Assembly: GCA_964016885.1 (NCBI GenBank) | Contig: CAXHJY010000151.1 | Location: 1 to 64,000, forward strand | Source of the DNA: Eledone cirrhosa | Lineage: Eukaryota | DNA length: 64,000 nt | Direction: 5' to 3' | Shown: one piece after another, positions 2,053-59,281 of the stretch | Layout of the letters: each line of letters starts with the position of its first letter | Numbering within the stretch: the first letter of the stretch is position 1 | Made by a program: the position numbers and the translations under genes | The notes under the pieces: generated by a model | What the model was told of the DNA's origin: nothing | The model's input: the letters and a program-made list of their open reading frames with translations, nothing else | Databases searched by the model: none

Positions 2053-2085
2053 GTCTCTACACTCTCCTTTGGCTCTGCCGCCCAC

Positions 2086-13308: not shown

Positions 13309-13934
<626 letters not shown>

Positions 13935-13935
<1 letters not shown>

Positions 13936-16900
13936 TAATAATAATAATAATAATGAAATGATTGTGTACAGTGCTCAGGTGCACTACAACTCATCAAAGG
14001 TGCATGTATAGTACATAGAATAATGTACAAATGTCAGGAAAATAAACAGTGTATGAGTCATGATATAATAACAATAACAATAATGAAATATTGTGCACAG
14101 TGCCCAGGTGCACCACAACCCATCAAAAAAGTGCATGTACAGTACATAGGGCAATGCACAAACATCAGTAAAATGAACAGTGCACACATGTGTGCATGTG
14201 TATGGAAGGGGCACATCAGGTGTAGTTTTGGCGTATTTCGGGAAGCATGAGTGTCTTAAAGGATGCAGTGTCTCGGCAGCTAACAATTGACGCAGGCAGT
14301 TTGTTCCATGTTTCAGCAACTCTGAGCGTGAAAAAATGTCTGCGAAAGTCATGGGAGCTGTGCTGTTTTCTTATCTTGTAGGCATGTCCACGTGTGTTAG
14401 ACACATGGAGATCAAAGAGGCGCTCAGGGTTGCAGTTGGCGAGATGGTTAAAAACTTTGTGGGTATTCACCAAGTCCACTGCCAGATGTCGGAGCTTCAA
14501 TGAATCCATGCCCAGGGAAGCAAGGCGTTCAGAGTATGGTAGGTGTCTGATGGAGGGTATGCGCTTGGTTGCACGTCTCTGAACAGCTTCCAGGAGGTCA
14601 ATGTTCCGAGCAAGATAGGGGTTCCAGACTGATGATGCGAATTCCAAGTGTGGTCGCACCATAGCTGTATACAGTTTTAAATAGATGGCTGGAGAGCGGC
14701 TAACAAAGGTCTTGCTGAGTGATGCCAAGACACCCTCGGCCTTCTTGACAATCTTAGAGACATGCTTTGTCCAACGCAAATCGTTGCCGACAGTAATGCC
14801 CAGGTCACGTTCACAAGAGGACTTTTTGATGTCAGTGTTGTGGAGGGAGTATGTGGACGCTGGATTTTTCCTTCCAAAATGCATGGTGGTACACTTGTCC
14901 ACAGCCAGCTTCAGTTGCCAGTCTGTGATCCATTGCTGCATTGTGTCCAGGTCTGATTTTAGGAAAGAGTTGTAAATTTCAGGATCAGTCCTTTTGATTT
15001 CAAGGTACAGCTTGATGTCATCTGCATATTTTAGTACCGTGGCATTCTGTAAGTTGGCATCTATGTCATTAATATATGCCACAAACAAAAGAGGACCAAG
15101 AACAGATCCCTGTGGTACACCAGATGACATCTCATATGGTGAAGAATGCTGTCCTAGAACCGTGACTACTTTCCTTCGGCTGAGAATGAAGGATTTCAGC
15201 CAGTCGAAAAGATCATCCCTCACACCCATTGCAGAGAGTTTTGCCATAAGTCTTTTGTGTGGCACAGAATTAAAAGCCTTAGCAAAGTCAAGGTAAACAA
15301 CATCCACCCATGAGCCGCTGTCAGTGATCCGGGTGATGTCCTCAAGGAACTCGATAAGCTGATCACAGCAGCTGGAGTTAGGGATAAATCCAAACTGTGA
15401 GGGCCGGATGAGGCTGTGAGAGCTCCAGAAGTTCCAAAGTGTTTCTCTGACACAGGATTCCATCAGTTTGGCCATACAGCTAGTAAGACTGACTGGACGA
15501 TAGTTGACAGGTGACATGCGGTTGCCCTTTTTGAACAGGGGAATGACACTGGCAGTTTTCCACTGCTCCGGAGTAGCACCATTGCTGAGACAGTATTGAA
15601 AGAAAAAAGAAAGCTGGCGCAAAAGGAAATCCCCGCCACGTTTGAGAAGCAGGTATGTCACACCATCAAGACCAGGGGAGGCATAGTTGCGCTTATTCTT
15701 AAGGTGACGTCGCAACATTGCAGGTGTAAATTCCATAGTTGTTATGGAATTTGATGTTAGAGATGGTGGAGATGGTACATTCTGGTTTTCAACAGTAAAA
15801 ATACTTGCATAGCACTCAGCAATGAGTTCTGCGCATTCCTTGGGATCGTCAGTGATCTGGCTTGTGTGGGGATTGCGAAGAGGACCAACTGGAGAGTGAG
15901 GTCTCTGCTTTGAATGAACATATTTCCAGAACACCTTACTGTCAGGATTGGTTGCGATGCACTGTTCAAATTCAAGCACTGCCTTCTTTGTCACTTGCTT
16001 GAGATGGTTAGAAGATTTATTCCGCTTTTTTCTGTTGGCATCTGATCTATGCAGTTTATATTCCCGTTCAGCGTTCCGACGTTCTTTCCTGGCAAGTCGG
16101 ACTGCTGAAGTTTCCCAGATTGCACTTTTGGGGTGGTTATTTTTCCGCTTCCGTGGCACTGATGCTGCACACGCTATCCATATTGAGTCCAGGATGCTCT
16201 GGAGTATAGAGTTCACATCTCCAGAGTTATACATCTCATGCCAGTTTGGGCGCTGTAGCTCAGTGCAGTACAAGTTCCAATCCGCCCTCTTCCAATCAAA
16301 GCAAGCAGATTGGAGATGGCTCTGGTTTTTGTTGCTGCCCTCAAGTGCCAGATTGGCAATGATCATAGCATGATCAGAGTCGCCTAGAGGTTCCTCAGTA
16401 GTACAACTGATAACCACTTCAGGAGTAGTGGTGAAGATCAGGTCCAAAGTGTTGTCACCTCTTGTTGGAGAGGTGACTACTTGTGACCAGTTTGAGTCCA
16501 GCACTAGTTCAAGGAAATCGTTTGCACCCTGTGGCCAACGAAAGGTTTCCCAATCGATCTCAGGATGATTGAAGTCACCTGCAATAAACACATAAGTGGC
16601 TGTTTTCTTGGCAGCAACTCTGAGGATATCGCAAAGCTGTGTGTCCTGATGGTAGTTTGGGGGGCGATAAACAACACCAAGCAGAAGTGTTGACATGGTC
16701 ATACGTATGTCACAGAAAAAAACTTCTTCCTGTGATTCGTTCAAATCAACGCAAGGAATTACCGAAAAGTTTGAACGAACGTAGACCATCACACCACCAC
16801 CACGGCGGTTAATGCGGTCCTTGCGGAAAAGGTTGTACCCAGTAATGGTGAAAACCCCATCACAGAGTAAGGAATGTGCCCATGTTTCCGTGACTGTGAT

Positions 16901-20504: not shown

Positions 20505-21382
20505 ACCTGGCCCTTACCCTAACCCCAACCTCTTTGGTTTTCGTTTTCTCGACGGCTAGCCGCATTTCGTGATCCGCCTTTCGATTGCGCTTCCGTCGCG
20601 GCAAAAGAATTGCCTTTCCAGACCGCCGTCGCCCGACCGGACCCATGATAGAAGACGTTCGTTACCGTTGGAGCAACGCAAATTACTCCTCGGTTGACGC
20701 CAAAAACGAACGCCTTCCCGCCTCGCGCCGCCTTCTCCTCGCCGACCCTCGGCCTCGACGATTAGCCACTTTCCGTCACAGCAGTAGATACGCGTCCGTC
20801 GTAATAGCCGTCATTTTAACGCAGGAGAAACGCCTAATTGCCCTGCACCGCGTTTGACGGCGATCTACGACGGCGACGATGCGCGCACTCTTCCTTGCTG
20901 CGACGAAGGTTTCGGCTTTTCGTCGTGGACCCGGTCAGGTCATGCCGCTGACCTCGCGTTACGGCGACGCGAGAAGACGTTCGTTACCGCTGGAGCAACG
21001 CAAATTACTCCTCGGTTGACGCCAAAAACGAACGCCTCGCGCCGCCGCTTCCTCCTCGGCCTCGACGATTAGCCGCTTTCCGTCACAGCAGTAGATACGC
21101 GTCCATCGTAATAGCCGTCATTTTAACGCAGGAGAAACGCCTTGACGACGATATACGACGGGTCGACGACGCGCGCACTCTTTCTGCTGCGACGAAGGTT
21201 TTGGCTTTTCGTTGTGGACCCGGTCGGGTCATGCCTCTGACCTCGCGTTGCGTCGCCACCGCCGCGGCGGGCTTGGGTTTAGCCGTAGCTACCCTCGTTT
21301 TGCCAACGGCGACGCGAGAAGACGTTCGTTACCGCTGGAGCAACGCAAATTACTCCTCGGATGAGGCCAAAAACGAACGCTG
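20505..21382 (+). repeat. Diverged copies of the rDNA-spacer/ETS-like sequence, without the 18S piece
   Basis: Shares long blocks with 27491-28900, including 3 copies of GACGTTCGTTACCG.TGGAGCAACGCAAATTACTCCTCGG. Preceded by a short CCCTAA-like tract. Copy at ~58327-59204. Confidence 0.9.
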
Positions 21383-27403: not shown

Positions 27404-27490
27404 ACCCTAACCCTAAACCTAACCCCAACTCCAACTCTGACCCTAAACCTAACCCCAACCCCAACCCTAACCCTAACCCTAACCCTAACC
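27404..27490 (+). repeat. Interstitial telomere-like tract, C-strand (CCCTAA/CCCCAA)
   Basis: About 14 hexamers, ending in near-perfect (CCCTAA)n that abuts the 169-bp array. Confidence 0.9.
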
Positions 27491-28580
27491 CACGATAGAA
27501 GACGTTCGTTACCGCTGGAGCAACGCAAATTACTCCTCGGTTGACGCCAAAAACGAACGCCTTCTCGACGGCTAGCCGCATTTCGTGATCCGCCTTTCGA
27601 TTGCGCTTCCGTCGCGGAAAAAGAATTGCCTTTATAGGCCGCCGCCGCCCGACCGGACCCACGATAGAAGACGTTCGTTACCGCTGGAGCAACGCAAATT
27701 ACTCCTCGGTTGACGCCAAAAACGAACGCCTTCTCGACGGCTAGCCGCATTTCGTGATCCGCCTTTCGATTGCGCTTCCGTCGCGGAAAAAGAATTGCCT
27801 TTATAGGCCGCCGCCGCCCGACCGGACCCACGATAGAAGACGTTCGTTACCGCTGGAGCAACGCAAATTACTCCTCGGTTGACGCCAAAAACGAACGCCT
27901 TCTCGACGGCTAGCCGCATTTCGTGATCCGCCTTTCGATTGCGCTTCCGTCGCGGAAAAAGAATTGCCTTTATAGGCCGCCGCCGCCCGACCGGACCCAC
28001 GATAGAAGACGTTCGTTACCGCTGGAGCAACGCAAATTACTCCTCGGTTGACGCCAAAAACGAACGCCTTCTCGACGGCTAGCCGCATTTCGTGATCCGC
28101 CTTTCGATTGCGCTTCCGTCGCGGAAAAAGAATTGCCTTTATAGGCCGCCGCCGCCCGACCGGACCCACGATAGAAGACGTTCGTTACCGCTGGAGCAAC
28201 GCAAATTACTCCTCGGTTGACGCCAAAAACGAACGCCTTCTCGACGGCTAGCCGCATTTCGTGATCCGCCTTTCGATTGCGCTTCCGTCGCGGAAAAAGA
28301 ATTGCCTTTATAGGCCGCCGCCGCCCGACCGGACCCACGATAGAAGACGTTCGTTACCGCTGGAGCAACGCAAATTACTCCTCGGTTGACGCCAAAAACG
28401 AACGCCTTCTCCACGGCTAGCCGCATTTCGTGATCCGCCTTTCGATTGCGCTTCCGTCGCGGAAAAAGAATTGCCTTTATAGGCCGCCGCCGCCGCCCGA
28501 CCGGACCCACGATAGAAGACGTTCGTTACCGCTGGAGCAACGCAAATTACTCCTCGGTTGACGCCAAAAACGAACGCCTT
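27491..28580 (+). repeat. 169-bp GC-rich tandem array (6 full plus 1 partial), rDNA spacer/ETS-like
   Basis: Units start at 27491, 27660, 27829, 27998, 28167, 28336 and 28508 and are nearly identical. Lies ~360 bp upstream of an 18S 5' end. Confidence 0.93.
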
Positions 28581-28938
28581 CCGGTTCGGGCGACGTAAAA
28601 GTCTGTAGCCTTTTCGCCGATCCTCGACGATTATCCGCCTTCCGAACAACCGCCTTTCCGCCGTCACAGCAGTAGGTACTCGTCCGTCGTAATAGCCGTC
28701 ATTTTAATGCAGGAGAAACGCCTAAATGCACTGCGATTGACGACGATCTACGACGCGCTTACTCTTCCTTGCTGCGACGAAGGTTTCGTTCGGCTTTTCG
28801 TCGTGGACCCGGTCAGGTCATGCCGCTGATCTCGCGTTGCGTCGTTACCGCTGGAGCAACGCAAATTACTCCTCGTTTAACGCCAACATCGAACGCGCTT
28901 CGGTTCTCGGTCGTCGTTGTTTTGTTTCGTGCGGAAGA

Positions 28939-29124
28939 TACCTGGGTGATCCTGCCAGTAGTCATATGCTTGTCTCAAAGCTTAAGCCATGCAAGTGGAA
29001 GTTCATGCCGTAAACGAAAATGGTGAAACCGCGAATGGCTCAGGAACCGGATCTAATCCTCGGGACCGTATTCCTCACCGCGAGGAGAGGATAACTGTGG
29101 CAATTCTAGAGCTAATACATGCAA
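28939..29124 (+). rRNA. 18S rRNA 5'-terminal fragment (~185 nt); not a complete gene
   Basis: TACCTGGGTGATCCTGCCAGTAGTCATATGCTTGTCTCAAAG.TTAAGCCATGCA ... GTGAAACCGCGAATGGCTCA ... GGATAACTGTGGCAATTCTAGAGCTAATACATGC matches the universal eukaryotic SSU start. Confidence 0.93.
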
Positions 29125-29130
29125 TTGAGA

Positions 29131-32100
29131 TCGGAGAGGGAGCGATCCGTCTGCTTGATTCCGATAACGAACGAGACATTCGTATCCGAAAGAACGTTTG
29201 TCTGGAAACTGGTGCAGTCAGTGAGTCGAAAAAAAAATATCTCGGTGGTAGTAGCAAATATTCGAACGAGACATTCGTATGCGAAAGAACGTTTGTCGGT
29301 GGTAGTAGCAAATATTCGAACGAGACATTCGTATGCGAAAGAACGTTTGTCGGTGGTAGTAGCAAATATTCGAACGAGACATTCGTATGCGAAAGAACGT
29401 TTGTCTGGAAGTGGCGATCCATGCCCGGTGGATAGTTGGTTCCGGGTTTTACTATGATTGTTGCAAAACAAAAACTTAAAGGGATTGACAGAATTTGCGA
29501 TTCCGGAGAGAGGGCGATCCGTCTGCTTGATTCCGATAACGAACGAGACATTCGTATCCGAAAGAACGTTTGTCTGGAAACTAGTGAGTCAGTGAGTCGA
29601 AAAAAAAATATCTCGGTGGTAGTAGCAAATATTCGAACGAGACATTCGTATGCGAAAGAACGTTTGTCGGTGGTAGTAGCAAATATTCGAACGAGACATT
29701 CGTATGCGAAAGAACGTTTGTCTGGAAGTGGCGATCCATGCCCGGTGGATAGTTGGTTCCGGGTTTTACTATGATTGTTGCAAAACAGAAACTTAAAGGG
29801 ATTGACAGAATTTGCGATTACGGAGAGGGGGCGATCCGTCTGCTTGATTCCGATAACGAACGAGACATTCGTATCCGAAAGAACGTTTGTCTGGAAACTG
29901 GTGAGTCAGTGAGTCGAAAAAAAAATATCTCGGTGGTAGTGGCAAATATTCGAACGAGACATTCGTATGCGAAAGAACGTTTGTCGGTGGTAGTAGCAAA
30001 TATTCGAACGAGACATTCGTATGCGAAAGAACGTTTGTCTGGAAGTGGCGATCCATGCCCGGTGGATAGTTGGTTCCGGGTTTTACTATGATTGTTGCAA
30101 AACAGAAACTTAAAGGGATTGACAGAATTTGCGATTACGGAGAGGGGGCGATCCGTCTGCTTGATTCCGATAACGAACGAGACATTCGTATCCGAAAGAA
30201 CGTTTGTCTGGAAACTGGTGAGTCAGTGAGTCGAAAAAAAAATATCTCGGTGGTAGTAGCAAATATTCGAACGAGACATTCGTATGCGAAAGAACGTTTG
30301 TCGGTGGTAGTAGCAAATATTCGAACGAGACATTCGTATGCGAAAGAACGTTTGTCTGGAAGTTGCGATCCATGCCCTGTGGATAGTTGGTTCCGGGTTT
30401 TACTATGATTGTTGCAAAACAGAAACTTAAAGGGATTGACAGAATTTGCGATTCCGGAGAGGGGGCAATCCGTCTGCTTGATTCCGATAACGAACGAGAC
30501 ATTCGTATCCGAAAGAACGTTTGTCTGGAAACTGGTGAGTCAGTGAGTCGAAAAAAAAAATATCTCGGTGGTAGTAGCAAATATTCGAACGAGACATTCG
30601 TATGCGAAAGAACGTGTGTCGGTGGTAGTAGCAAATATTCGAACGAGACATTCGTATGCGAAAGAACGTTTGTCTGGAAGTGGCGATCCATGCTCGGTGG
30701 ATAGTTGGTTCCGGGTTTTACTATGATTGTTGCAAAACAGAAACTTAAAGGGATTGACAGAATTTGCGATTCCGGAGAGGGGGCGATCCGTCTGCTTGAT
30801 TCCGATAACGAACGAGACATTCGTATCCGAAAGAACGTTTGTCTGGAAACTGGTGAGTCAGTGAGTCGAAAAAAAAATATCTCGGTGGTAGTAGCAAATA
30901 TTAGAACGAGACATTCGTATGCGAAAGAACGTTTGTCGGTGGTAGTAGCAAATATTCGAACGAGACATTCGTATGCGAAAGAACGTTTGTCGGTGGTAGT
31001 AGCAAATATTCGAACGAGACATTCGTATGCGAAAGAACGTTTGTCTGGAAACTGGTGAGTCAGTGAGTCGAAAAAAAAATATCTCGGTGGTAGTAGCAAA
31101 TATTCGAACGAGACATTCGTATGCGAAAGAACGTTTGTCGGTGGTAGTAGCAAATATTCGAACGAGACATTCGTATGCGAAAGAACGTTTGTCTGGAAGT
31201 GGCGATCCATGCCCGGTGGTAGTTGGTTCCGGGTTTTACTATGATTGTTGCAAAACAGAAACTTAAAGGGATTGACAGAATTTGCGATTCCGGAGAGGGG
31301 GCGATCCGTCTGCTTGAATCCGATAACGAACGAGACATTCGTATCCGAAAGAACGTTTGTCTGGAAACTGGTGAGTCAGTGAGTCGAAAAAAAAATATCT
31401 CGGTGGTAGTAGCAAATATTCGAACGAGACATTCGTATGCGAAAGAACGTTTGTCGGTGGTAGTAGCAAATATTCGAACGAGACATTCGTATGCGAAAGA
31501 ACGTTTGTCTGGAAGTGGCGATCCATGCCCGGTGGATAGTTGGTTCCGGGTTTTACTATGATTGTTGCAAAACAGAAACTTAAAGGGATTGACAGAATTT
31601 GCGATTCCGGAGAGGGGGCGATCCGTCTGCTTGAATCCGATAACGAACGAGACATTCGTATCCGAAAGAACGTTTGTCTGGAAACTGGTGAGTCAGTGAG
31701 TCGAAAAAAAAATATCTCGGTGGTAGTAGCAAATATTCGTATGCGAAAGAAAAGATCTCGGTGGTAGTAGCAAATATTCGAACGAGACATTCGTAGGCGA
31801 AAGAAAAATATCTCGGTGGTAGTAGCAAATATTCGAACGAGACATTCGTATTCGAAAGAACGTTTGTCTGGAAGTTGCGATCCATGCCCGGTGGATAGTT
31901 GGTTCCGGGCTTTACTATGATTGTTGCAAAACAGAAACTTAAAGGGATTGACAGAATTTGCGATTCCGGAGAGGGGGCGATCCGTCTGCTTGATTTCGAT
32001 AACGAACGAGACATTCGTATCCGAAAGAACGTTTGTCTGGAAACTGGTGAGTCAGTGAGTCGAAAAAAAAATATCTCGGTGGTAGTAGCAAATATTCGAA

Positions 32101-34170
32101 CGAGACATTCGTATGCGAAAGAACGTTTGTCGGTGGTAGTAGCAAATATTCGAACGAGACATTCGTATGCGAAAGAACGTTTGTCTGGAAGTGGCGATCC
32201 ATGCCCGGTGGATAGTTGGTTCCGGGTTTTACTATGATTGTTGCAAAACAGAAACTTAAAGGGATTGACAGAATTTGCGATTCCAGAGAGAGGGCGATCC
32301 GTCTGCTTGATTCCGATAACGAACGAGACATTCGTATCCGAAAGAACGTTTGTCTGGAAACTGGTGAGTCAGTGAGTCGAAAAAAAAATATCTCGGTGGT
32401 AGTAGCAAATATTCGAACGAGACATTCGTATGCGAAAGAACGTTTGTCTGGAAGTGGCGATCCATGCTCGGTGGATAGTTGGTTCCGGGTTTTACTATGA
32501 TTGTTGCAAAACAGAAACTTAAAGGGATTGACAGAATTTGCGATTCCGGAGAGGGGGCGATCCGTCTGCTTGATTCCGATAACGAACGAGACATTCGTAT
32601 CCGAAAGAACGTTTGTCTGGAAACTGGTGAGTCAGTGAGTCGAAAAAAAAAATATCTCGGTGGTAGTAGCAAATATTCGAACGAGACATTCGTATGCGAA
32701 AGAACGTTTGTCGGTGGTAGTAGCAAATATTCGAACGAGACATTCGTATGCGAAAGAACGTTTGTCTGGAAGTGGCGATCCATGCCCGGTGGATAGTTGG
32801 TTCCGGGTTTTACTATGATTGTTGCAAAACAGAAACTTAAAGGGATTGACAGAATTTGCGATTCCGGAGAGGGGGCGATCCGTCTGCTTGATTCCGATAA
32901 CGAACGAGACATTCGTATCCGAAAGAACGTTTGTCTGGAAACTGGTGAGTCAGTGAGTCGAAAAAAAAAATATCTCGGTGGTAGTAGCAAATATTCGAAC
33001 GAGACATTCGTATGCGAAAGAAAAATATCTCGGTGGTAGTAGCAAATATTCGAACGAGACATTCGTATGCGAAAGAACGTTTGTCGGTGGTAGTAGCAAA
33101 TATTCGAACGAGACATTCGTATGCGAAAGAACGTTTGTCTGGAAGTGGCGATCCATGCCCGGTGGATAGTTGGTTCCGGGTTTTACTATGATTGTTGCAA
33201 AACAGAAACTTAAAGGGATTGACAGAATTTGCGATTCCGGAGAGAGGGCGATCCGTCTGCTAGATTCCGATAACGAACGAGACATTCGTATCCGAGAGAA
33301 CGTTTGTCTGGAAACTGGTGAGTCAGTGAGTCGAAAAAAAAATATCTCGGTGGTAGTAGCAAATATTCGAACGAGACATTCGTATGCGAAAGAAAAATAT
33401 CTCGGTGGTAGTAGCAAATATTCGAACGAGACATTCGTATGCGAAAGAACGTTTGTCTGGAAGTGGCGATCCATGCCCGGTGGATAGTTGGTTCCGGGTT
33501 TTACTATGATTGTTGCAAAACAGAAACTTAAAGGGATTGACAGAATTTGCCATTCCGGAGAGGGGGCGATCCGTCTGCTTGATTCCGATAACGAACGAGA
33601 CATTCGTATCCGAAAGAACGTTTGTCTGGAAACTGGTGAGTCAGTGAGTCGAAAAAAAAATATCTCGGTGGTAGTAGCAAATATTCGAACGAGACATTCG
33701 TATGCGAAAGAACGTTTGTCTGGAAGTGGCGATCCATGCTCGGTGGATAGTTGGTTCCGGGTTTTACTATGATTGTTGCAAAACAGAAACTTAAAGGGAT
33801 TGACAGAATTTGCGATTCCGGAGAGGGGGCGATCCGTCTGCTTGATTCCGATAACGAACGAGACATTCGTATCCGAAAGAATGTTTGTCTGGAAACTGGT
33901 GAGTCAGTGAGTCGAAAAAAAAATATCTCGGTGGTAGTAGCAAATATTCGTATGCGAAAGAAAAGATCTCGGTGGTAGTAGCAAATATTCGAACGAGACA
34001 TTCGTAGGCGAAAGAAAAATATCTCGGTGGTAGTAGCAAATATTCGAACGAGACATTCGTATTCGAAAGAACGTTTGTCTGGAAGTTGCGATCCATGCCC
34101 GGTGGATAGTTGGTTCCGGGCTTTACTATGATTGTTGCAAAACAGAAACTTAAAGGAATTGACAGAATTT
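29131..34170 (+). repeat. Tandem array of 15 rRNA-mosaic units (typically 317 bp, range 263-518) with an internal 54-bp subrepeat
   Basis: Each unit has 18S-like GATTCCGGAGAGGG, ATTCCGATAACGAACGAGAC and GGTTCCGGG...GAAACTTAAAGG.ATTGAC, plus 28S-like ATCTCGGTGGTAGTAGCAAATATTCGAACGAGA. Confidence 0.92.
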
Positions 34171-34194
34171 TCGAATCGACATCAACTCGGCTAC

Positions 34195-34550
34195 GGCTAT
34201 CCCGTCGAGTACGAGAGTATCGCGGGATCAGAGCAACGGTTTGCTAGGCTGCCTCTGAGCGATAACGGCTGAACGCCTCCTCTAAGCCGGAACCCTAGCC
34301 GGACCCGAGTTGTTTTTCGACAAGCGTCTCGACCTTCTTAAGGCCCATGCCTTAGTTTGGCGATTGCCGTCCGTTCGCCGACGGCGGCAGCGTCAGCGGA
34401 AATGCCATTCTGTGACGACTACGACGATTCGTCGTCGTCGTCGTCCATTCGATTTCCTGAAAGAGATAGAGACTAAAGTGATCAAATTGTTCGGAGTTAC
34501 GTGCTTAGTAGAGCAGCTACCACACTGCAATCTATTGAGAGTTTTCTGAC
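34195..34550 (+). rRNA. Diverged 28S rRNA 3'-terminal fragment (sarcin-ricin loop to 3' end)
   Basis: AGTACGAGAG (34208-34217), CTGAACGCCTC..TAAG, and AGAGCAGCTACCACACTGCAATCTATTGA occur in the order expected for the metazoan LSU 3' end. Confidence 0.82.
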
Positions 34551-35574
34551 GAACGATACAATCCGCCCACGTGGCGCCAGAAAGGGAGAAGAAAAGAAAA
34601 GTTAGACGCCGCCGATCGATCGGTTCGTTGTTTTACGTGTACACAGCTTGTGTGTGTGTCTGTATGTGATACAAGCCGCCTATCCGTCTTCCAAGTAAGT
34701 TTTGTGTGTAGACTGCGGAAAGAAATCCAATCCGCCGTCTAGGCGGTTCTGCCGCCGACCCATACTTTTGCGAGTCGCTCCCGGGAAAGACAGGCGGCAA
34801 GACGGCGTGTATACACGACGCCTTCCGTCTTCCGCCTCGAACCCGGGCAAACGTTCCTTTATTCGTCCACGCCTTCCCGCTTCGATCGCGAGAAAGTAAT
34901 CAATCTGTTTTGTGTGTGTGTCTGTGTGTGATACAAATTTGTTTTCTTAATTTGATAACCATGAATTGTTTCAACACCGGCCCTTTTCAGGGCCACTTAT
35001 ATTTTCAATAATCAGTTTAAATGGGTTGCACCGTAGCCACTTGGTAATACACTGCAAATCTCCCGTCAATCTATGAAGGTTTTGTAGTAGATTAGATCAA
35101 AACACAATCAGCAAGACAGTAATGGAATGAATAATATAAACATTTGTTTATAATTAAAGCCTTAAGATGTCCCTCCCTCCCTCCCTTCCTCCCTTCCTTC
35201 CTTCCTTCCTTCCTTCCTTACGATATACACTTTAATAACATTGAAACTTATTTAATAAGTTTAAATTTTAAACACTTTTTATTCAGACGTACCGCGATAA
35301 GTAACTAGATATGTTCTAACGAATAATCCGCGATGTGGCGAGGATTACCGCGATAGGAAATTAGATACGTTCCAAAGAAATATCCGCGAAAAGTGAACCG
35401 CGATATAGCGGGTTCACCAGCCAGTGTATTACTGGTACTTTATTTTATCGACCCCCATAAGGATGAAAGGCAAAGTTAACTGTGCAATAACAAAGGGAGA
35501 TAACCTCGTCTTTTTTTTTTTACGGAGTTATTTCCCTTTAAATTTTATCTATTACTTATGATGATACAATTTAA

Positions 35575-35975: not shown

Positions 35976-36190
35976 TAAGTTAAGTTGGGGCTAAGTTAAG
36001 TTGAGGTTAAGTTGAGTTGGGGTTAAGTTAAGTGGGGGTTAAGTTAAGCTGGGGTTAAGTTAAGTTGAGGTTAAGTTAAGTTGGGGTTAAGTCAAGTTGG
36101 GGTTAAGTTAAGTTGGGGTTAAGTTAGGTTGGGGTTAAGTTAGGTTGGGGTTAAGTTAAGTTGGGGTTAAGTTAGGTTGCGGTTAAGTTA
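35976..36190 (+). repeat. G-rich telomere-variant repeat, 16-bp unit (TTAAG TTA[A/G]G TTGGGG)n
   Basis: About 13 units read directly from the sequence. Confidence 0.9.
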
Positions 36191-39100
36191 CATTCGCCGC
36201 CGGACTTCAGCTTCCTCATTTAGCATGGGCAGTTTTTCTTGAAAATCACACCACACACAGCAAATGTGTGTCCGCACATGTACCAGTAATTACAGATCGA
36301 TTCCGGTGAAAATTCACTGAAAACGGGCCATCCGGCCCTGTGCGTCGATCGTGGGCCGGCCGGATGTTGACGGATCGATGTGTAATTAGAAGTACATGTG
36401 CGGACACTCATTGGCTGTGCGTGGTATGCATTTCAGCAAGATATCTCCGTAACATCAAGAGTTATGGCTGTGGAGGCACACCTAGTCAAACGTAAACAAG
36501 GTCTGGAGCGTTTACGCTTCGCGATTTTGTTTACGTTTGACTAGGTGTGCCTCCACAGCCACAACTCTTGATGTTACGGAGATATCTTGCTGAAATGCAT
36601 ACCGCGCACAGCCAATGAGTGTCCGCACATGTACTTCTAATTACACATCGATCCGTCAACATCCGGCCGGCCCACGATCGACGCACAGGGCCGGATGGCC
36701 CGTTTTCAGTGAATTTTCACCGGAATCGATCTGTAATTACTGGTACATGTGCGGAGACACATTTGCTGTGTGTGGTGTGATTTTCAAGAAAAACTGCCCA
36801 TGCTAAATGAGGAAGCTGAAGTCCGCCGGCGAATGGTGTGCTTCGAAGAAAACTAATTCGAAAATGACCGTTTGCAGGCGGAGTAACCTTTTCGATCGTG
36901 GGCCAGCCGCCCGTGGTGGGATCCATCTGTAATTACTGGTACATGTGCGGACATACATTTGCTGTGTGTGGTGTGATTTTCAAGAAGAACTGCCCATGCT
37001 AAATGAGGAAGCTGAAGTCCGCCGGCGAATGGTGTGCTTCGAAGAAAACTAATTCGAAAATGACCGTTTGCAGGCGGGGTAACCTTTTCGATCGTGGGCC
37101 AGCCGCCCGTGGTGGGATCCATCTGTAATTACTGGTACATGTGCGGACACACATTTGCTGTGTGTGGTGTGATTTTCGAGAAAGACTGCCCATGCTAAAT
37201 GAGGAAGCTGAAGTCCGCCGGCGAATGGTGTGCTTCGAAGAAAACTAATTCGAAAATGACTATTTGCCGGCGGAATCACCTTTTCGGTCCTGGTCCGGCC
37301 GGATCTTGCCGGATCGATCGGAAATTTGTGGACCATGTTCGGAAGGCCATTGTGCATGTGTGGTGAAAAAAATTTGTGTCGAAATCTTCTCGGAAAATAA
37401 CGGATCGCCGGCGGAGATTGCCATTTCGATCGTGGGCCGGCCGGATCTTGTCGGATCGATTCGGACATATGTGCATCGTGTTCGCAAGGCCCTTGTCTAT
37501 GTGTGGTGTGATTTTCATAAAGAAATTCCGAAAAACCCAGTTTTAAATCTGATTTCGCCAAAGAATTTTGGCTATCAGATCGGGTTGAAAGGTATGGTTT
37601 CAGGTCGATCTGAAAGTCTAAAATGGAATTCACTCGGTTAGCTAACTATTGATATTTCGGAGATATCTTTCTGAAAATCACACCACACACTCCCAATGAG
37701 TGTCTGCACATGTACCAGTAATTACAGATGGATCCCACCACGGGCGGCCGGCCCACGATCGAAAAGGTTACTCCGAAGCACACCATTCGCCGGCGGAATT
37801 CATTTAGCATGGGCAGTTTTTCTCGAATATCACACCACACACAGCCAATGAGTGTCCGCACATGTACCAGTAATTACAGATGGATCCCACCACGGGCGGC
37901 TGGCCCACGATCGAAAAGGTTACTCCGCCTGCAAACGGTCATTTTCGAATTCGTTTTCTTCGAAGCACACGATTCGCCGGCGGACTTCAGCTGCCTCATT
38001 TAGCATGGGCAGTTTTTCTCGAAAATCACACCACACACAGCAAATGTGTGTCCGCACATGTACCAGTAATTACAGATCGATTCCGGTGAAAATTCACTGA
38101 AAACGGGCCATTCGGCCCTGTGCGTCGATCGTGGGCCGGCCGGATGTTGACGGATCGATGTGTAATTAGAAGTACATGTGCGGACACTCATTGGCTGTGC
38201 GTGGTATGCATTTCAGCAAGATATCTCCGTAACATCAAGAGTTATGGCTGTGGAGGCACACCTAGTCAAACGTAAACAAAATCGCGAAGCGTATACGCTC
38301 CAGAGCTTGTTTACGTTTGACTAGGTGTGCCTCCACAGCCATAACTCTTGATGTTACGGAGATATCTTGCTGAAATGCATACCACGCACAGCCAATGAGT
38401 GTCCGCACATGTACTTCTAATTACACATCGATCCGTCAACATCCGGCCGGCCCACGATCGACGCACAGGGCAGAATGGCCCGTTTTCAGTGAATTTTCAC
38501 CGGAATCGATCTGTAATTACTGGTACATGTGCGGACACACATTTGCTGTGTGTGGTGTGATTTTCACGAAAAACTGCCCATGCTAAATGAGGAAGCTGAA
38601 GTCCGCCGGCGAATGGTGTGCTTCGAAGAAAACTAATTCGAAAATGACCGTTTGCAGGCGGAGTAACCTTTTCGATCGTGGGCCAGCCGCCCGTGGTGGG
38701 ATACATCTGTAATTACTGGTACATGTGCGGACACACATTTGCTGTGTGTGGTGTGATTTTCGAGAAAGACTGCCCATGCTAAATGAGGAAGCTGAAGTCC
38801 GCCGGCGAATGGTGTGCTTCGAAGAAAACTAATTCGAAAATGACTATTTGCCGGCGGAATCACCTTTTCGGTCCTGGTCCGGCCGGATCTTGCCGGATCG
38901 ATCGGAAATTTGTGGACCATGTTCGGAAGGCCATTGTGCATGTGTGATGAAAAAAATTTGTGTCGAAATCTTCTCGGAAAATAACGGATCGCCGGCGGAG
39001 ATTGCCATTTCGATCGTGGGCCGGCCGGATCTTGTCGGATCGATTCGGACATATGTGCATCGTGTTCGCAAGGCCCTTGTCTATGTGTGGTGTGATTTTC

Positions 39101-42100
39101 ATAAAGAAATTCCGAAAAACCCAGTTTTAAATCTGATTTCGCCAAAGAATTTTGGCTATCAGATCGGGTTGAAAGGTATGGTTTCAGGTCGATCTGAAAG
39201 TCTAAAATGGAATTCACTCGGTTAGCTAACTTTTGATATATCGGAGATATCTTTCTGAAAATCACACCACACACTCCCAATGAGTGTCTGCACATGTACC
39301 AGTAATTACAGATGGATCCCACCACGGGCGGCCGGCCCACGATCGAAAAGGTTACTCCGAAGCACACCATTCGCCGGCGGAATTCATTTAGCATGGGCAG
39401 TTTTTCTCGAAAATCACACCACACACAGCCAATGAGTGTCCGCACATGTACCAGTAATTACAGATGGATCCCACCACGGGCGGCTGGCCCACGATCGAAA
39501 AGGTTACTCCGCCTGCAAACGGTCATTTTCGAATTAGTTTTCTTCGAAGCACACCATTCGCCGGCGGACTTCAGCTTCCTCATTTAGCATGGGCAGTTTT
39601 TCTCGAAAATCACACCACACACAGCAAATGTGTGTCCGCACATGTACCAGTAATTACAGATCGATTCCGGTGAAAATTCACTGAAAACGGGCCATTCGGC
39701 CCTGTGCGTCGATCGTGGGCCGGCCGGATGTTGACGGATCGATGTGTAATTAGAAGTACATGTGCGGACACTCATTGGCTGTGCGTGGTATGCATTTCAG
39801 CAAGATATCTCCGTAACATCAAGAGTTATGGCTGTGGAGGCACACCTAGTCAAACGTAAACAAGCTCTGGAGCGTATACGCTTCGCGATTTTGTTTACGT
39901 TTGACTAGGTGTGCCTCCACAGCCACAACTCTTGATGTTACGGAGATATCTTGCTGAAATGCATACCACGCACAGCCAATGAGTGTCCGCACATGTACTT
40001 CTAATTACACATCGATCCGTCAACATCCGGCCGGCCCACGATCGACGCACAGGGCCGGATGGCCCGTTTTCAGTGAATTTTCACCGGAATCGATCTGTAA
40101 TTACTGGTACATGTGCGGACACACATTTGCTGTGTGTGGTGTGATTTTCACGAAAAACTGCCCATGCTAAATGAGGAAGCTGAAGTCCGCCGGCGAATGG
40201 TGTGCTTCGAAGAAAACTAATTCGAAAATGACCGTTTGCAGGCGGAGTAACCTTTTCGATCGTGGGCCAGCCGCCCGTGGTGGGATCCATCTGTAATTAC
40301 TGGTACATGTGCGGACACTCATTGGCTGTGTGTGGTGTGATTTTCGAGAAAGACTGCCCATGCTAAATGAGGAAGCTGAAGTCCGCCGGCGAATGGTGTG
40401 CTTCGAAGAAAACTAATTCGAAAATGACTATTTGCCGGCGGAATCACCTTTTCGGTCCTGGTCCGGCCGGATCTTGCCGGATCGATCGGAAATTTGTGGA
40501 CCATGTTCGGAAGGCCATTGTGCATGTGTGATGAAAAAAATTTGTGTCGAAATCTTCTCGGAAAATAACGGATCGCCGGCGGAGATTGCCATTTCGATCG
40601 TGGGCCGGCCGGATCTTGTCGGATCGATTCGGACATATGTGCATCGTGTTCGCAAGGCCCTTGTCTATGTGTGGTGTGATTTTCATAAAGAAATTCCGAA
40701 AAACCCAGTTTTAAATCTGATTTCGCCAAAGAATTTTGGCTATCAGATCGGGTTGAAAGGTATGGTTTCAGGTCGATCTGAAAGTCTAAAATGGAATTCA
40801 CTCGGTTAGCTAACTTTTGATATATCGGAGATATCTTTCTGAAAATCACACCACACACTCCCAATGAGTGTCTGCACATGTACCAGTAATTACAGATGGA
40901 TCCCACCACGGGCGGCCGGCCCACGATCAAAAAGGTTACTCCGAAGCACACCATTCGCCGGCGGAATTCATTTAGCATGGGCAGTTTTTCTCGAAAATCA
41001 CACCACACACAGCCAATGAGTGTCCGCACATGTACCAGTAATTACAGATGGATCCCACCACGGGCGGCTGGCCCACGATCGAAAAGGTTACTCCGCCTGC
41101 AAACGGTCATTTTCGAATTAGTTTTCTTCGAAGCACACCATTCGCCGGCGGACTTCAGCTTCCTCATTTAGCATGGGCAGTTTTTCTCGAAAATCACACC
41201 ACACACAGCAAATGTGTGTCCGCACATGTACCAGTAATTACAGATCGATTCCGGTGAAAATTCACTGAAAACGGGCCATTCTGCCCTGTGCGTCGATCGT
41301 GGGCCGGCCGGATGTTGACGGATCGATGTGTAATTAGAAGTACATGTGCGGACACTCATTGGCTGTGCGTGGTATGCATTTCAGCAAGATATCTCCGTAA
41401 CATCAAGAGTTATGGCTGTGGAGGCACACCTAGTCAAACGTAAACAAGCTCTGGAGCGTATACGCTTCGCGATTTTGTTTACGTTTGACTAGGTGTGCCT
41501 CCACAGCCACAACTCTTGATGTTACGGAGATATCTTGCTGAAATGCATACCACGCACAGCCAATGAGTGTCCGCACATGTACTTCTAATTACACATCGAT
41601 CCGTCAACATCCGGCCGGCCCACAATCGACGCACAGGGCCGGATGGCCCGTTTTCAGTGAATTTTCACCGGAATCGATCTGTAATTACTGGTACATGTGC
41701 GGACACACATTTGCTGTGTGTGGTGTGATTTTCACGAAAAACTGCCCATGCTAAATGAGGAAGCTGAAGTCCGCCGGCGAATGGTGTGCTTCGAAGAAAA
41801 CTAATTCGAAAATGACCGTTTGCAGGCGGAGTAACCTTTTCGATCGTGGGCCAGCCGCCCGTGGTGGGATACATCTGTAATTACTGGTACATGTGCGGAC
41901 ACACATTTGCTGTGTGTGGTGTGATTTTCGAGAAAGACTGCCCATGCTAAATGAGGAAGCTGAAGTCCGCCGGCGAATGGTGTGCTTCGAAGAAAACTAA
42001 TTCGAAAATGACTATTTGCCGGCGGAATCACCTTTTCGGTCCTGGTCCGGCCGGATCTTGCCGGATCGATCGGAAATTTGTGGACCATGTTCGGAAGGCC

Positions 42101-45100
42101 ATTGTGCATGTGTGGTGAAAAAAATTTGTGTCGAAATCTTCTCGGAAAATAACGGATCGCCGGCGGAGATTGCCATTTCGATCGTGGGCCGGCCGGATCT
42201 TGTCGGATCGATTCGGACATATGTGCATCGTGTTCGCAAGGCCCTTGTCTATGTGTGGTGTGATTTTCATAAAGAAATTCCGAAAAACCCAGTTTTAAAT
42301 CTGATTTCGCCAAAGAATTTTGGCTATCAGATCGGGTTGAAAGGTATGGTTTCAGGTCGATCTGAAAGTCTAAAATGGAATTCACTCGGTTAGCTAACTA
42401 TTGATATATCGGAGATATCTTTCTGAAAATCACACCACACACTCCCAATGAGTGTCTGCACATGTACCAGTAATTACAGATGGATCCCACCACGGTCGGC
42501 CGGCCCACGATCGAAAAGGTTACTCCGAAGCACACCATTCGCCGGCGGAATTCATTTAGCATGGGCAGTTTTTCTCGAAAATCACACCACACACAGCCAA
42601 TGAGTGTCCGCACATGTACCAGTAATTACAGATGGATCCCACCACGGGCGGCTGGCCCACGATCGAAAAGGTTACTCCGCCTGCAAACGGTCATTTTCGA
42701 ATTAGTTTTCTTCGAAGCACACCATTCGCCGGCGGACTTCAGCTTCCTCATTTAGCATGGGCAGTTTTTCTTGAAAATCACACCACACACAGCAAATGTG
42801 TGTCCGCACATGTACCAGTAATTACAGATCGATTCCGGTGAAAATTCACTGAAAACGGGCCATTCGGCCCTGTGCGTCGATCGTGGGCCGGCCGGATGTT
42901 GACGGATCGATGTGTAATTAGAAGTACATGTGCGGACACTCATTGGCTGTGCGTGGTATGCATTTCAGCAAGATATCTCCGTAACATCAAGAGTTATGGC
43001 TGTGGAGGCACACCTAGTCAAACGTAAACAAGGTCTGGAGCGTTTACGCTTCGCGATTTTGTTTACGTTTGACTAGGTGTGCCTCCACAGCCACAACTCT
43101 TGATGTTACGGAGATATCTTGCTGAAATGCATACCGCGCACAGCCAATGAGTGTCCGCACATGTACTTCTAATTACACATCGATCCGTCAACATCCGGCC
43201 GGCCCACGATCGACGCACAGGGCCGGATGGCCCGTTTTCAGTGAATTCTCACCGGAATCGATCTGTAATTACTGGTACATGTGCGGAGACACATTTGCTG
43301 TGTGTGGTGTGATTTTCAAGAAAAACTGCCCATGCTAAATGAGGAAGCTGAAGTCCGCCGGCGAATGGTGTGCTTCGAAGAAAACTAATTCGAAAATGAC
43401 CGTTTGCAGGCGGAGTAACCTTTTCGATCGTGGGCCAGCCGCCCGTGGTGGGATCCATCTGTAATTACTGGTACATGTGCGGACATACATTTGCTGTGTG
43501 CGGTGTGATTTTCAAGAAGAACTGCCCATGCTAAATGAGGAAGCTGAAGTCCGCCGGCGAATGGTGTGCTTCGAAGAAAACTAATTCGAAAATGACCGTT
43601 TGCAGGCGGGGTAACCTTTTCGATCGTGGGCCAGCCGCCCGTGGTGGGATCCATCTGTAATTACTGGTACATGTGCGGACACACATTTGCTGTGTGTGGT
43701 GTGATTTTCGAGAAAGACTGCCCATGCTAAATGAGGAAGCTGAAGTCCGCCGGCGAATGGTGTGCTTCGAAGAAAACTAATTCGAAAATGACTATTTGCC
43801 GGCGGAATCACCTTTTCGGTCCTGGTCCGGCCGGATCTTGCCGGATCGATCGGAAATTTGTGGACCATGTTCGGAAGGCCATTGTGCATGTGTGGTGAAA
43901 AAAATTTGTGTCGAAATCTTCTCGGAAAATAACGGATCGCCGGCGGAGATTGCCATTTCGATCGTGGGCCGGCCGGATCTTGTCGGATCGATTCGGACAT
44001 ATGTGCATCGTGTTCGCAAGGCCCTTGTCTATGTGTGGTGTGATTTTCATAAAGAAATTCCGAAAAACCCAGTTTTAAATCTGATTTCGCCAAAGAATTT
44101 TGGCTATCAGATCGGGTTGAAAGGTATGGTTTCAGGTCGATCTGAAAGTCTAAAATGGAATTCATTCGGTTAGCTAACTATTGATATATCGGAGATATCT
44201 TTCTGAAAATCACACCACACACTCCCAATGAGTGTCTGCACATGTACCAGTAATTACAGATGGATCCCACCACGGGCGGCCGGCCCACGATCGAAAAGGT
44301 TACTCCGAAGCACACCATTCGCCGGCGGAATTCATTTAGCATGGGCAGTTTTTCTCGAAAATCACACCACACACAGCCAATGAGTGTCCGCACATGTACC
44401 AGTAATTACAGATGGATCCCACCACGGGCGGCTGGCCCACGATCGAAAAGGTTACTCCGCCTGCAAACGGTCATTTTCGAATTCGTTTTCTTCGAAGCAC
44501 ACGATTCGCCGGCGGACTTCAGCTGCCTCATTTAGCATGGGCAGTTTTTCTCGAAAATCACACCACACACAGCAAATGTGTGTCCGCACATGTACCAGTA
44601 ATTACAGATCGATTCCGGTGAAAATTCACTGAAAACGGGCCATTCGGCCCTGTGCGTCGATCGTGGGCCGGCCGGATGTTGACGGATCGATGTGTAATTA
44701 GAAGTACATGTGCGGACACTCATTGGCTGTGCGTGGTATGCATTTCAGCAAGATATCTCCGTAACATCAAGAGTTATGGCTGTGGAGGCACACCTAGTCA
44801 AACGTAAACAAGCTCTGGAGCGTATACGCTTCGCGATTTTGTTTACGTTTGACTAGGTGTGCCTCCACAGCCACAACTCTTGATGTTACGGAGATATCTT
44901 GCTGAAATGCATACCACGCACAGCCAATGAGTGTCCGCACATGTACTTCTAATTACACATCGATCCGTCAACATCCGGCCGGCCCACGATCGACGCACAG
45001 GGCCGGATGGCCCGTTTTCAGTGAATTTTCACCGGAATCGATCTGTAATTACTGGTACATGTGCGGACACACATTTGCTGTGTGTGGTGTGATTTTCACG

Positions 45101-46165
45101 AAAAACTGCCCATGCTAAATGAGGAAGCTGAAGTCCGCCGGCGAATGGTGTGCTTCGAAGAAAACTAATTCGAAAATGACCGTTTGCAGGCGGAGTAACC
45201 TTTTCGATCGTGGGCCAGCCGCCCGTCGTGGGATACATCTGTAATTACTGGTACATGTGCGGACACACATTTGCTGTGTGTGGTGTGATTTTCGAGAAAG
45301 ACCGCCCATGCTAAATGAGGAAGCTGAAGTCCGCCGGCGAATGGTGTGCTTCGAAGAAAACTAATTCGAAAATGACTATTTGCCGGCGGAATCACCTTTT
45401 CGGTCCTGGTCCGGCCGGATCTTGCCGGATCGATCGGAAATTTGTGGACCATGTTCGGAAGGCCATTGTGCATGTGTGATGAAAAAAATTTGTGTCGAAA
45501 TCTTCTCGGAAAATAACGGATCGCCGGCGGAGATTGCCATTTCGATCGTGGGCCGGCCGGATCTTGTCGGATCGATTCGGACATATGTGCATCGTGTTCG
45601 CAAGGCCCTTGTCTATGTGTGGTGTGATTTTCATAAAGAAATTCCGAAAAACCCAGTTTTAAATCTGATTTCGCCAAAGAATTTTGGCTATCAGATCGGG
45701 TTGAAAGGTATGGTTTCAGGTCGATCTGAAAGTCTAAAATGGAATTCACTCGGTTAGCTAACTATTGATATTTCGGAGATATCTTTCTGAAAATCACACC
45801 ACACACTCCCAATGAGTGTCTGCACATGTACCAGTAATTACAGATGGATCCCACCACGGGCGGCCGGCCCACGATCGAAAAGGTTACTCCGAAGCACACC
45901 ATTCGCCGGCGGAATTCATTTAGCATGGGCAGTTTTTCTCGAAAATCACACCACACACAGCCAATGAGTGTCCGCACATGTACCAGTAATTACAGATGGA
46001 TCCCACCACGGGCGGCTGGCCCACGATCGAAAAGGTTACTCCGCCTGCAAACGGTCATTTTCGAATTCGTTTTCTTCGAAGCACACGATTCGCCGGCGGA
46101 CTTCAGCTGCCTCATTTAGCATGGGCAGTTTTTCTCGAAAATCACACCACACACAGCCAATGAGT
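36191..46165. repeat. CpG-rich palindromic satellite: 1584/1780-bp units, 196-bp subrepeat, six dyad centres
   Basis: Mirror-image ORF pairs place centres at 36513, 38293, 39877, 41461, 43045 and 44825. Arms are ~480 bp around a 27-bp spacer. Confidence 0.95.
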
Positions 46166-46919: not shown

Positions 46920-47288
46920 TCACCCTCTCTCTCTTTCCCCTCTCATACAACCCCTTCTTTCTCTTTCTTTCCCCTCTCACACAACCTCTTCTTTCTCTCT
47001 CTTTTTGCCAGTCCCTTCTCTCACTCTCTCTCCCTCTTCCTTTTTTATCTCTTTCTTTCTGTCTCTGTTTCCCTCCTATAGACATTCTCTCTCTCTCTTT
47101 CTGCTCTCACTCAGCCTTCTCTCTCTTTCCCCTCTCACACAGTCTTCTCTCTCTCTCTTTCCCCTCTCACACAGCATTCTCTCTCTCTCTCTCTCTCTTT
47201 CCCCTCTCACACAGCATTCTCTCTCTCTCTCTCTCTTTATTTCCCCTCTCACACAGCCTTCTCTCTCTATCTATCTATCTCTCTCTCT
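46920..47288. repeat. Pyrimidine-rich repeat (CT)n with TTCCCCTCTCACACAGC cores; contains the empty Tx1 site
   Basis: Ends in CTATCTATCTATCTCTCTCTCTGGAG, matching the Tx1 3' flank at 5738. Confidence 0.85.
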
Positions 47289-57769: not shown

Positions 57770-59281
57770 TATTATTTGTTTTATTATAATCAAAATATGC
57801 TGTTAGTTAGATCTGCATTGTGTACATTTTATATAATTTATGCCAGTTCCTTTTCTACATATCGAACATGGCCATTTCCCTGACGGAATAGAGTTTTGTC
57901 CTCTTTTCTACTCATCAACACTCATTCGTGACACAAAGTACAGCCAGCGGCATCATTGCGGACAGACTTAATCCTGATTTGCACTGACACACTGCCTCGC
58001 AATACGGAACACCGCACGTCTTTGATCTTCTTCCCGTCGATCAGCCTCCTTGCCATGCAAAGTACACCTGACGTCTAGCTTCTCTCTTAGCGGCGGCGGC
58101 TGTATATTCTTCTCTACTCCCACTAATTTTCCAAGCATTCCATGCTAGTCTTTAGTCTCCAATGGCCCGATCTACAGTTTCTGTCTCAACTCGTCTATGC
58201 TTGGTCGTTCCCGCACATTGACATTGCACATCCAACGGAGCATGCTTGCTTCATTTCTCTCCAGCCGTCGCATGTCCTCTGCAGTTGCTGCCCGTGTCTC
58301 ACTACCATGCAGCATCGCGCATCTAAACCTGGCCCTTACCCTAACCCCAACCTCTTTGGTTTTCGTTTTCTCGACGGCTAGCCGCATTTCGTGATCCGCC
58401 TTTCGATTGCGCTTCCGTCGCGGCAAAAGAATTGCCTTTCCAGACCGCCGTCGCCCGACCGGACCCATGATAGAAGACGTTCGTTACCGTTGGAGCAACG
58501 CAAATTACTCCTCGGTTGACGCCAAAAACGAACGCCTTCCCGCCTCGCGCCGCCTTCTCCTCGCCGACCCTCGGCCTCGACGATTAGCCACTTTCCGTCA
58601 CAGCAGTAGATACGCGTCCGTCGTAATAGCCGTCATTTTAACGCAGGAGAAACGCCTAATTGCCCTGCACCGCGTTTGACGGCGATCTACGACGGCGACG
58701 ATGCGCGCACTCTTCCTTGCTGCGACGAAGGTTTCGGCTTTTCGTCGTGGACCCGGTCAGGTCATGCCGCTGACCTCGCGTTACGGCGACGCGAGAAGAC
58801 GTTCGTTACCGCTGGAGCAACGCAAATTACTCCTCGGTTGACGCCAAAAACGAACGCCTCGCGCCGCCGCTTCCTCCTCGGCCTCGACGATTAGCCGCTT
58901 TCCGTCACAGCAGTAGATACGCGTCCATCGTAATAGCCGTCATTTTAACGCAGGAGAAACGCCTTGACGACGATATACGACGGGTCGACGACGCGCGCAC
59001 TCTTTCTGCTGCGACGAAGGTTTTGGCTTTTCGTTGTGGACCCGGTCGGGTCATGCCTCTGACCTCGCGTTGCGTCGCCACCGCCGCGGCGGGCTTGGGT
59101 TTAGCCGTAGCTACCCTCGTTTTGCCAACGGCGACGCGAGAAGACGTTCGTTACCGCTGGAGCAACGCAAATTACTCCTCGGATGAGGCCAAAAACGAAC
59201 GCTGAAGAGATATTGTCCATGGATATCGGGAATTTTACCCGCCCTAGATAGATAGATAGATAGGGATGTATGTATGTATGT

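Follow-up and report, generated by a model that had tools for sequence, protein, structure and literature searches.

A satellite unit with a 1-kb palindrome in Eledone cirrhosa and a single flipped centre, probably the product of one inverted copying event

A head-to-tail array of palindromic units

The analysis of a 64,000-nucleotide stretch of the Eledone cirrhosa genome (assembly GCA_964016885.1, contig CAXHJY010000151.1, positions 1 to 64,000; the whole stretch is referred to as the window) reveals an array of six satellite units, each carrying a long palindrome with a short spacer at its centre, and in one of which this spacer is turned round. The window is C178:1-64000 in our numbering, C178 being an unplaced 268-kb contig made of the palindrome-bearing repeat in a genome of 3.0 Gb and 1796 contigs. 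The arms of the palindromes consist of monomers of a 196-bp satellite, whose plain form elsewhere in the genome is called the parent satellite below. The features that describe the array are as follows.

36191-46165, plus strand: head-to-tail array of six palindromic satellite units with periods of 1780, 1584, 1584, 1584 and 1780 bp
39349-40414, no strand: example of a main palindrome (unit 3), with ~520-bp arms of 196-bp monomers, 95.7% identical and perfect over the 35 bp next to the spacer
39864-39890, plus strand: normal spacer of 27 bp, found in the same orientation at 36500, 41448, 43032 and 44812
39669-39708, no strand: inversion junction within the left arm of unit 3, with a mirror copy at 40046-40085 and without a match in the parent satellite
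39141-39227, plus strand: part of the asymmetric linker between palindromes, without a match in the parent satellite

The palindrome centres start at 36500, 38280, 39864, 41448, 43032 and 44812, and the period of each unit (1584 versus 1780 bp) is set by the number of 196-bp monomers that it contains. All six main palindromes are ~1,066 bp long with a spacer of 27 bp, and their arms are 94-96% identical, with only one to five mismatches over the inner 259 bp. Units 5-6 duplicate units 1-2 at 99.2% identity. The normal spacer itself forms an imperfect hairpin tip around a 12-bp dyad, which an earlier note on this DNA had described as perfect; this is the case in four of the six spacers, while those at 36500 and 43032 carry one mismatch each. 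The whole palindrome centre is predicted to fold as a very stable hairpin (z of about -11 to -12). The linker region keeps a single polarity through the sampled arrays, and it served as the reference for orienting each unit. The tandem joint of the unit was also present in contigs from three of four public sequencing runs. Contigs of low depth (~2-45) and nearly the same sequence in runs X2, X5 and X7, which are filed under other organisms, may reflect cross-contamination and were left aside. Rfam scans, one of the two reaching only position 38000, gave no match inside the array.

The flipped centre of unit 2

The comparison of the six centres confirms what the earlier note had reported, namely five spacers facing one way and one reversed, with 38280-38306 matching the reverse complement of the 39864 spacer at all 27 bases. 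Between the two orientations 19 of the 27 positions differ, so the flip is not a chance resemblance. The features that bear on this unit are listed here.

38280-38306, minus strand: flipped spacer, the exact reverse complement of the normal spacer
38245-38565, minus strand: inverted tract in its widest bounds, as inferred from markers +36, +166, +168, +260 and +261
41189-41447, plus strand: left arm of unit 4, which represents the donor type and whose reverse complement equals the first 259 bp of the right arm of unit 2
44812-44838, plus strand: centre of unit 6, the unflipped twin of unit 2, located 6.5 kb from the flipped centre

The flip extends beyond the spacer into one arm. The right arm of unit 2 holds the left-arm base at +36 (38342) and at +168 (38474), and its variant at +166 (38472) mirrors the left arm of unit 4 at 41282; both the symmetrised arm and the mirrored variant had been noticed earlier and are borne out here. 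The perfect arm stretch beside the spacer measures 165 bp in unit 2 as against 35 bp in the other five units. This arm is of left type up to +168 and of right type again from +260, giving an inverted tract of at least 195 bp (38280-38474) and at most 321 bp. The right switch would lie in 38475-38565 and, provided that the donor's right arm carried its usual base at +36, the left switch in 38245-38279.

Two comparisons give this change a direction. Within 300 bp of the centre, units 6 and 2 differ only in the spacer and at +36, +166 and +168, and since they match at all but these flip-linked sites, unit 6 likely shows the state before the flip. The parent satellite carries the right-arm base at +36 in all 175 copies compared, so the right arm of the flipped unit has received a derived left-arm base. 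In addition, the first 259 bp of this right arm differ from the left arm of unit 2 itself at +166, where they match another unit type (the +166 variant occurs in 42 of 256 left arms), so the template of the flip was apparently not the unit's own other arm. In sum, a spacer between intact arms has been exactly inverted, with homogenisation of one arm only and a return to the original template. Among the suggestions of the earlier note, an exchange between inverted arms as the source of the flip is supported, and the symmetrised arm is part of that event.

Reversed centres across the genome

The genome holds at least 407 palindrome centres, as counted with a 24-base spacer-edge pattern (398 forward and 9 reverse matches); a 32-base pattern gave 347 forward and 9 reverse matches. 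The sequence examined around the centres covers 308 of the 398 forward matches and all nine reverse ones, with orientation read from the linker, and the remaining ~80 centres, counted by pattern alone, are all on the forward strand of contigs whose known arrays are forward. Only two of 329 oriented centres (322 plus 7 more) are reversed relative to their linker. Every one of the nine reverse matches is accounted for: seven lie in two wholly reversed arrays (C760 and C1549), one is the flip of unit 2, and one is the last unit of the array on C18. In this last unit an entire C28-subtype palindrome has been turned round, both of its arms being swapped, and no second breakpoint is visible before the array gives way abruptly to unrelated sequence; the case is one of an inverted junction and not of a spacer flip.

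Such a count rules out ongoing resolution of the centres into two forms, as the earlier note had proposed under active cruciform resolution, and the arm comparison given below speaks against it as well. Given that the copies are clonally related, it excludes ongoing resolution only and leaves an ancient founder aside. The alternative that the earlier note had set against its own proposal, a single historical inversion with no other flipped copies, comes close to what is found, which is one internal flip and one inverted terminal unit. One internal flip per 329 units corresponds to 0.003 per unit (Poisson range 0.03-5.6 events), and private variants stand at ~0.0005 per base, so that a flip is of the order of a few point mutations, with a wide error.

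The palindrome arrays are mostly carried by a macro-repeat of ~30-45 kb, which runs head to tail in the sampled copies and of which one copy fills much of the window.

5738-47272, plus strand: one macro-repeat copy, the next copy beginning at 47273

The junction between a 16-bp satellite and the array, which marks these copies, was found 59 times, 43 times on C28 at 124.69-126.46 Mb and 16 times on six unplaced contigs. On C18 the palindromic unit forms a pure array of ~106 kb (6.747-6.853 Mb), in which the spacer is of a separate subtype. The C28 arrays lie in a satellite-rich region, with the 16-bp satellite abundant from 124.6 to 133.3 Mb of C28. The ends of arrays fall within arms. A dispersed foldback or miniature inverted-repeat transposable element was considered and rejected, the centres in the places examined being confined to tandem arrays, on C18, on C28 and on seven unplaced contigs; no separate search for target-site duplications was made.

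Left and right arms as separate lineages

The arms were compared in the 256 of 322 units in which both are collinear over 255 bp; the 66 units dropped include many terminal ones that are cut inside an arm. The mean number of mismatches per 255 bp was 2.03 between left arms, 3.38 between right arms, 4.37 between left and right arms of different units and 4.38 between the two arms of the same unit. When arm partners were shuffled the mean was 4.35, and 496 of 500 shuffles fell at or below the observed 4.38, so that no net homogenisation within units was found by this test in the 256 units. A unit's own arms being no closer than shuffled ones, left and right arms represent two lineages that are homogenised in direct register.

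Exchange in inverted register does occur at a low level. In 21 unflipped units, which fall on no fewer than three backgrounds, position +36 of the right arm shows the left-arm base, the derived state by the same comparison with the parent; the figure of 21 counts units and not independent events. Three of them have the +36 bases of both sides swapped. These are the first units of their arrays at C28 126055509, 126100449 and 126331582, with spacer and +78 unflipped, and an extruded cruciform with reciprocal mismatch repair, or else a double inversion, could account for them. The variant 182G, mirrored in both arms of five units, is not taken as a proof of conversion, as the five units, all on C18, are related and some right arms with the variant are paired with a normal left arm.

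Probable origin from the 196-bp satellite

The parent satellite was reached through a motif from loose ends of read contigs. A 25-base core of the palindromic unit has 24,638 matches in the genome at up to two mismatches, several times what ~407 units explain. The 196-bp satellite forms large arrays of one orientation on C1 (279.70-280.11 Mb), C2 (~244.2-244.4 Mb) and C4 (211.63 to at least 211.86 Mb). Its arrays occupy one region per large chromosome among the matches listed, and they include monomers of 227 bp and a variant with a short inverted repeat. It is a candidate centromeric satellite.

The comparison of the two sequences indicates that the palindromic unit likely derives from this plain satellite. 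The main subfamily of the parent is 86-90% identical to the window monomer, and only the two 40-bp junctions and some short parts of the linker in the palindromic unit lack a match in the parent. Three 10-kb samples of parent arrays contained no inverted repeat of at least 40 bp. The variant monomer (577 matches) aligns with the left arm of the window units up to the middle of the spacer, and at the site of the axis it has 15-bp arms, paired at 12 of 15 positions, around a 17-bp spacer. A small composite on C3 at 184.746 Mb (L132:6255-6760), lying between telomere-like repeats, has a junction that was found once. Along it, the 16-bp satellite is followed by pieces of the 196-bp satellite in reverse, then by an inversion junction and the short-inverted-repeat variant monomer, a layout that recalls the start of the window array.

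Formation of the unit and of the flip

Taken together, we consider it probable that a satellite unit with a 1-kb palindrome formed once from the 196-bp satellite and was multiplied head to tail, and that the flip is the outcome of one rare inverted copying event. The long arms would have arisen by fold-back or template-switch synthesis at the short imperfect inverted repeat of a variant parent monomer. Unequal exchange in direct register would then have spread the unit within the 30-45-kb macro-repeat and as a pure array, and under such exchange the left and right arms would evolve as separate lineages. In unit 2, a stalled fork or a break at the hairpin-prone centre may have left a free end within the 35 bp of the left arm that lie next to the spacer and match the right arm perfectly; in inverted register, this end would have started synthesis on a different unit. 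Copying would have run backwards through the spacer and 168-259 bp of the donor's left arm before returning to the unit's own right arm. A single event of this kind would yield the flipped spacer, the symmetrised arm and the foreign +166 variant together. Template switching and inverted gene conversion after a break give the same product and are indistinguishable here.

Several points weigh against this explanation. The mechanism rests on one event, with the break or stalled fork as a putative trigger, and a classical template switch uses the unit's own sister copy; to account for the foreign +166 base, either the donor was a second unit or a further event took place. Some 80 centres are counted by pattern only, and the flip is known from the assembly. 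At the origin, the best predicted fold of the parent seed site is modest (z of -1.9 and -3.1) and lies in a different register from the axis of today's palindrome, and the 27-bp spacer is not derivable from the 17-bp spacer of the parent in one clean step.

The flip might instead have taken place within unit 2, through a switch from leading to lagging strand or a crossover with conversion between its two arms, if the left arm then had the +166 variant and was overwritten later by direct-register exchange. A switch within the unit is the textbook route (PMC8604942), and second units of other arrays often have the +166 variant; in addition, a few units combine this variant in the left arm with the outer markers of unit 2. 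The two events required, together with a present left arm that equals the unflipped twin over the inner 300 bp, make this course unlikely.

We hold it a little less likely still that the flip is a consensus or assembly error, in which reads from a different unit were aligned in reverse to the symmetric arms and replaced the centre together with part of the right arm. The flip occurs once, on an unplaced contig of 268 kb that consists of this repeat, and its tract reproduces exactly another, common unit type without creating any new 31-mer, as would a misplaced read. The Logan short-read contigs of the public runs break at the 35-bp perfect arm. Against an error, the left arm retains all of its own left-type markers, so that the overwriting would have to be one-sided, and the private variants (6 in the 10-kb array versus ~0.5 per kb elsewhere) are not in excess. 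Moreover, a chromosome-scale scaffold holds other inverted-register exchanges, namely the 21 units described above with their three double swaps.

Hardly credible is the remaining proposal, made in the earlier note, by which a hairpin-ended or foldback replicating element forms the array as a concatemer, or the array acts as an amplification origin for the nearby rDNA-like cassette, its centres being actively resolved into flip and flop: both spacer orientations do exist, the predicted centre hairpin is very stable and a second reversed centre lies on C18, yet only two of 329 centres are reversed under a fixed linker polarity, where poxvirus concatemers are randomly oriented (PMC8956199), and the unit is satellite-derived. 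A Pfam scan of 15 of the 71 window open reading frames (ORFs) of at least 90 amino acids, including six within the array, revealed no Rep, resolvase or transposase; 13 had no Pfam match and the other two are LINE reverse transcriptases, reverse transcriptase and endonuclease of LINE type being the only domains seen.

The contig depth in three runs of one sample points the same way, at ~3,800-4,650 on macro-repeat-specific pieces and ~13,800-15,100 on unit-specific pieces. The resulting ratio of ~3.5 units per macro-repeat, against ~4.5-6.5 in the assembly, speaks weakly against a free amplified pool, as contig depth does not measure copy number, palindromes can be under-read and the sequenced sample may come from a different individual. 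The palindromic unit had no match in 150 kb from three true rDNA loci (C12, C4 and C25), which were recognised by 5.8S matches and BLAST of the 18S and 28S pieces of the window. A palindromic or amplified form of rDNA was likewise rejected, the unit being absent from the true rDNA stretches and the sampled macro-repeats running head to tail.

Comparison with known systems

The nearest likeness is to satellites of Tribolium beetles: the 1061-bp satellite of T. brevicornis has inverted segments of ~470 bp, as cited in PMC13081366, and TmSat2 of T. madens has inverted segments of ~300 bp (PMC13081366). In both cases, as here, the tandem monomer is one long dyad built from a shorter repeat in both orientations, and the arm length is similar, at ~480-520 bp in the E. 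cirrhosa unit. Head-to-tail monomers in long arrays, inverted segments of hundreds of base pairs and a shorter basic repeat are all found in the E. cirrhosa satellite, and on these tested features it can be assigned to the satellites with long inverted subunits of Tribolium type. It differs in that it has only hundreds of copies, mostly nested in a 30-45-kb macro-repeat, that a non-palindromic parent and seed repeat survive on other chromosomes, and that the inner arms are 98-99% identical around the 27-bp spacer.

The flip itself recalls intermolecular template switching, whose signature is spacer inversion with arm homogenisation (PMC8604942). The two share the occurrence of both changes in one event with two switches. 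However, the yeast cases involve arms of 9-16 bp, spacers of 2-5 bp and the same locus on the sister chromatid (PMC8604942), whereas the tract in E. cirrhosa is 195-321 bp long and the donor is apparently another unit.

In the human Y palindrome P6, arm-to-arm conversion is frequent and inversion rare (146 versus 3; PMC3723533). Conversion outnumbers inversion in E. cirrhosa as well, with 21 units converted at +36 against one internal flip, counted as units and not as events. The Y arms are kept more than 99.9% identical by conversion, while the E. cirrhosa arms keep near-fixed differences under direct-register homogenisation; conversion in this satellite is too rare to keep the arms identical.

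For the origin of the palindrome, origin-dependent inverted-repeat amplification (ODIRA) and foldback priming offer a parallel, as there a short inverted repeat seeds a long palindrome (PMC10766186, PMC7999016). What is shared is the placement of a long-palindrome axis at a pre-existing short, closely spaced inverted repeat. The likeness shown is limited to this axis site and does not extend to a replication origin, an extrachromosomal intermediate or an inverted triplication.

Viral flip and flop forms occur in a near-equal ratio, and the terminal resolution of parvoviruses is a related hairpin process with such forms. Poxvirus telomeres share with the present spacer an imperfect hairpin tip in two inverted, complementary forms, and their resolution requires a resolvase and a resolution site (PMC8956199). 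The E. cirrhosa satellite differs in having one form in less than 1% of copies, a fixed polarity, apparently no free ends, and no resolvase or Rep in the scanned window ORFs.

A description of this palindromic satellite family was not found in the literature searched (palindrome inversion, satellite inverted repeats and octopus satellites), and supplementary satellite catalogues could hold one.

Significance of the palindromic satellite

Long near-perfect palindromes with short spacers are described as unstable and rare in genomes (PMC10766186, PMC7999016), and here more than 400 near-perfect palindromes of 1 kb belong to one satellite family. In arm length they are comparable to the satellite described in PMC13081366 as the most prominent intra-monomer dyad reported to date. 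The family is not evidence for a new replicating element. It provides a natural replicate series for the rate of centre inversion (~1 in 330 units), and the survival of the plain parent and its seed repeat gives a view of how a satellite becomes palindromic.

A further reading, which we rate as improbable, is that the candidate centromeric 196-bp satellite gave rise to a palindromic offshoot whose ~106-kb pure array serves as the centromere of C18. If so, hundreds of near-perfect 1-kb palindromes with a 27-bp spacer would be stable in an animal germ line, and the plain parent on other chromosomes would be a built-in control for a possible role of dyad symmetry in specifying centromeres.

Neighbouring sequence

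The array is preceded in the window by two features of the macro-repeat.

35976-36190, plus strand: block of the 16-bp satellite abutting the start of the array
27488-34570, plus strand: rDNA-derived cassette with spacer-like 169-bp repeats, an 18S 5' end, a 317-bp array and a 28S 3' end

The rDNA-derived cassette is a neighbour within the macro-repeat and not part of the palindrome. A second, more diverged rDNA spacer-like piece, present at 20546-21035 and 58368-58857, is 82-95% identical to the 169-bp repeat and the upstream part of the cassette. After the 28S-derived piece, 34974-35018 matches the histone 3' stem-loop (Rfam RF00032, 36.4 bits), with no histone ORF upstream. Beside the first macro-repeat on C28, at 124.690 Mb (L018:1-1520), the 16-bp satellite turns round near position 300, which produces a large dyad, and runs up to an assembly gap. 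Two LINE-type elements with long open frames and with reverse transcriptase and endonuclease domains lie at 175-5523 and 14216-16789; the latter is absent from the next mapped macro-repeat copies and is therefore a recent insertion in this copy.

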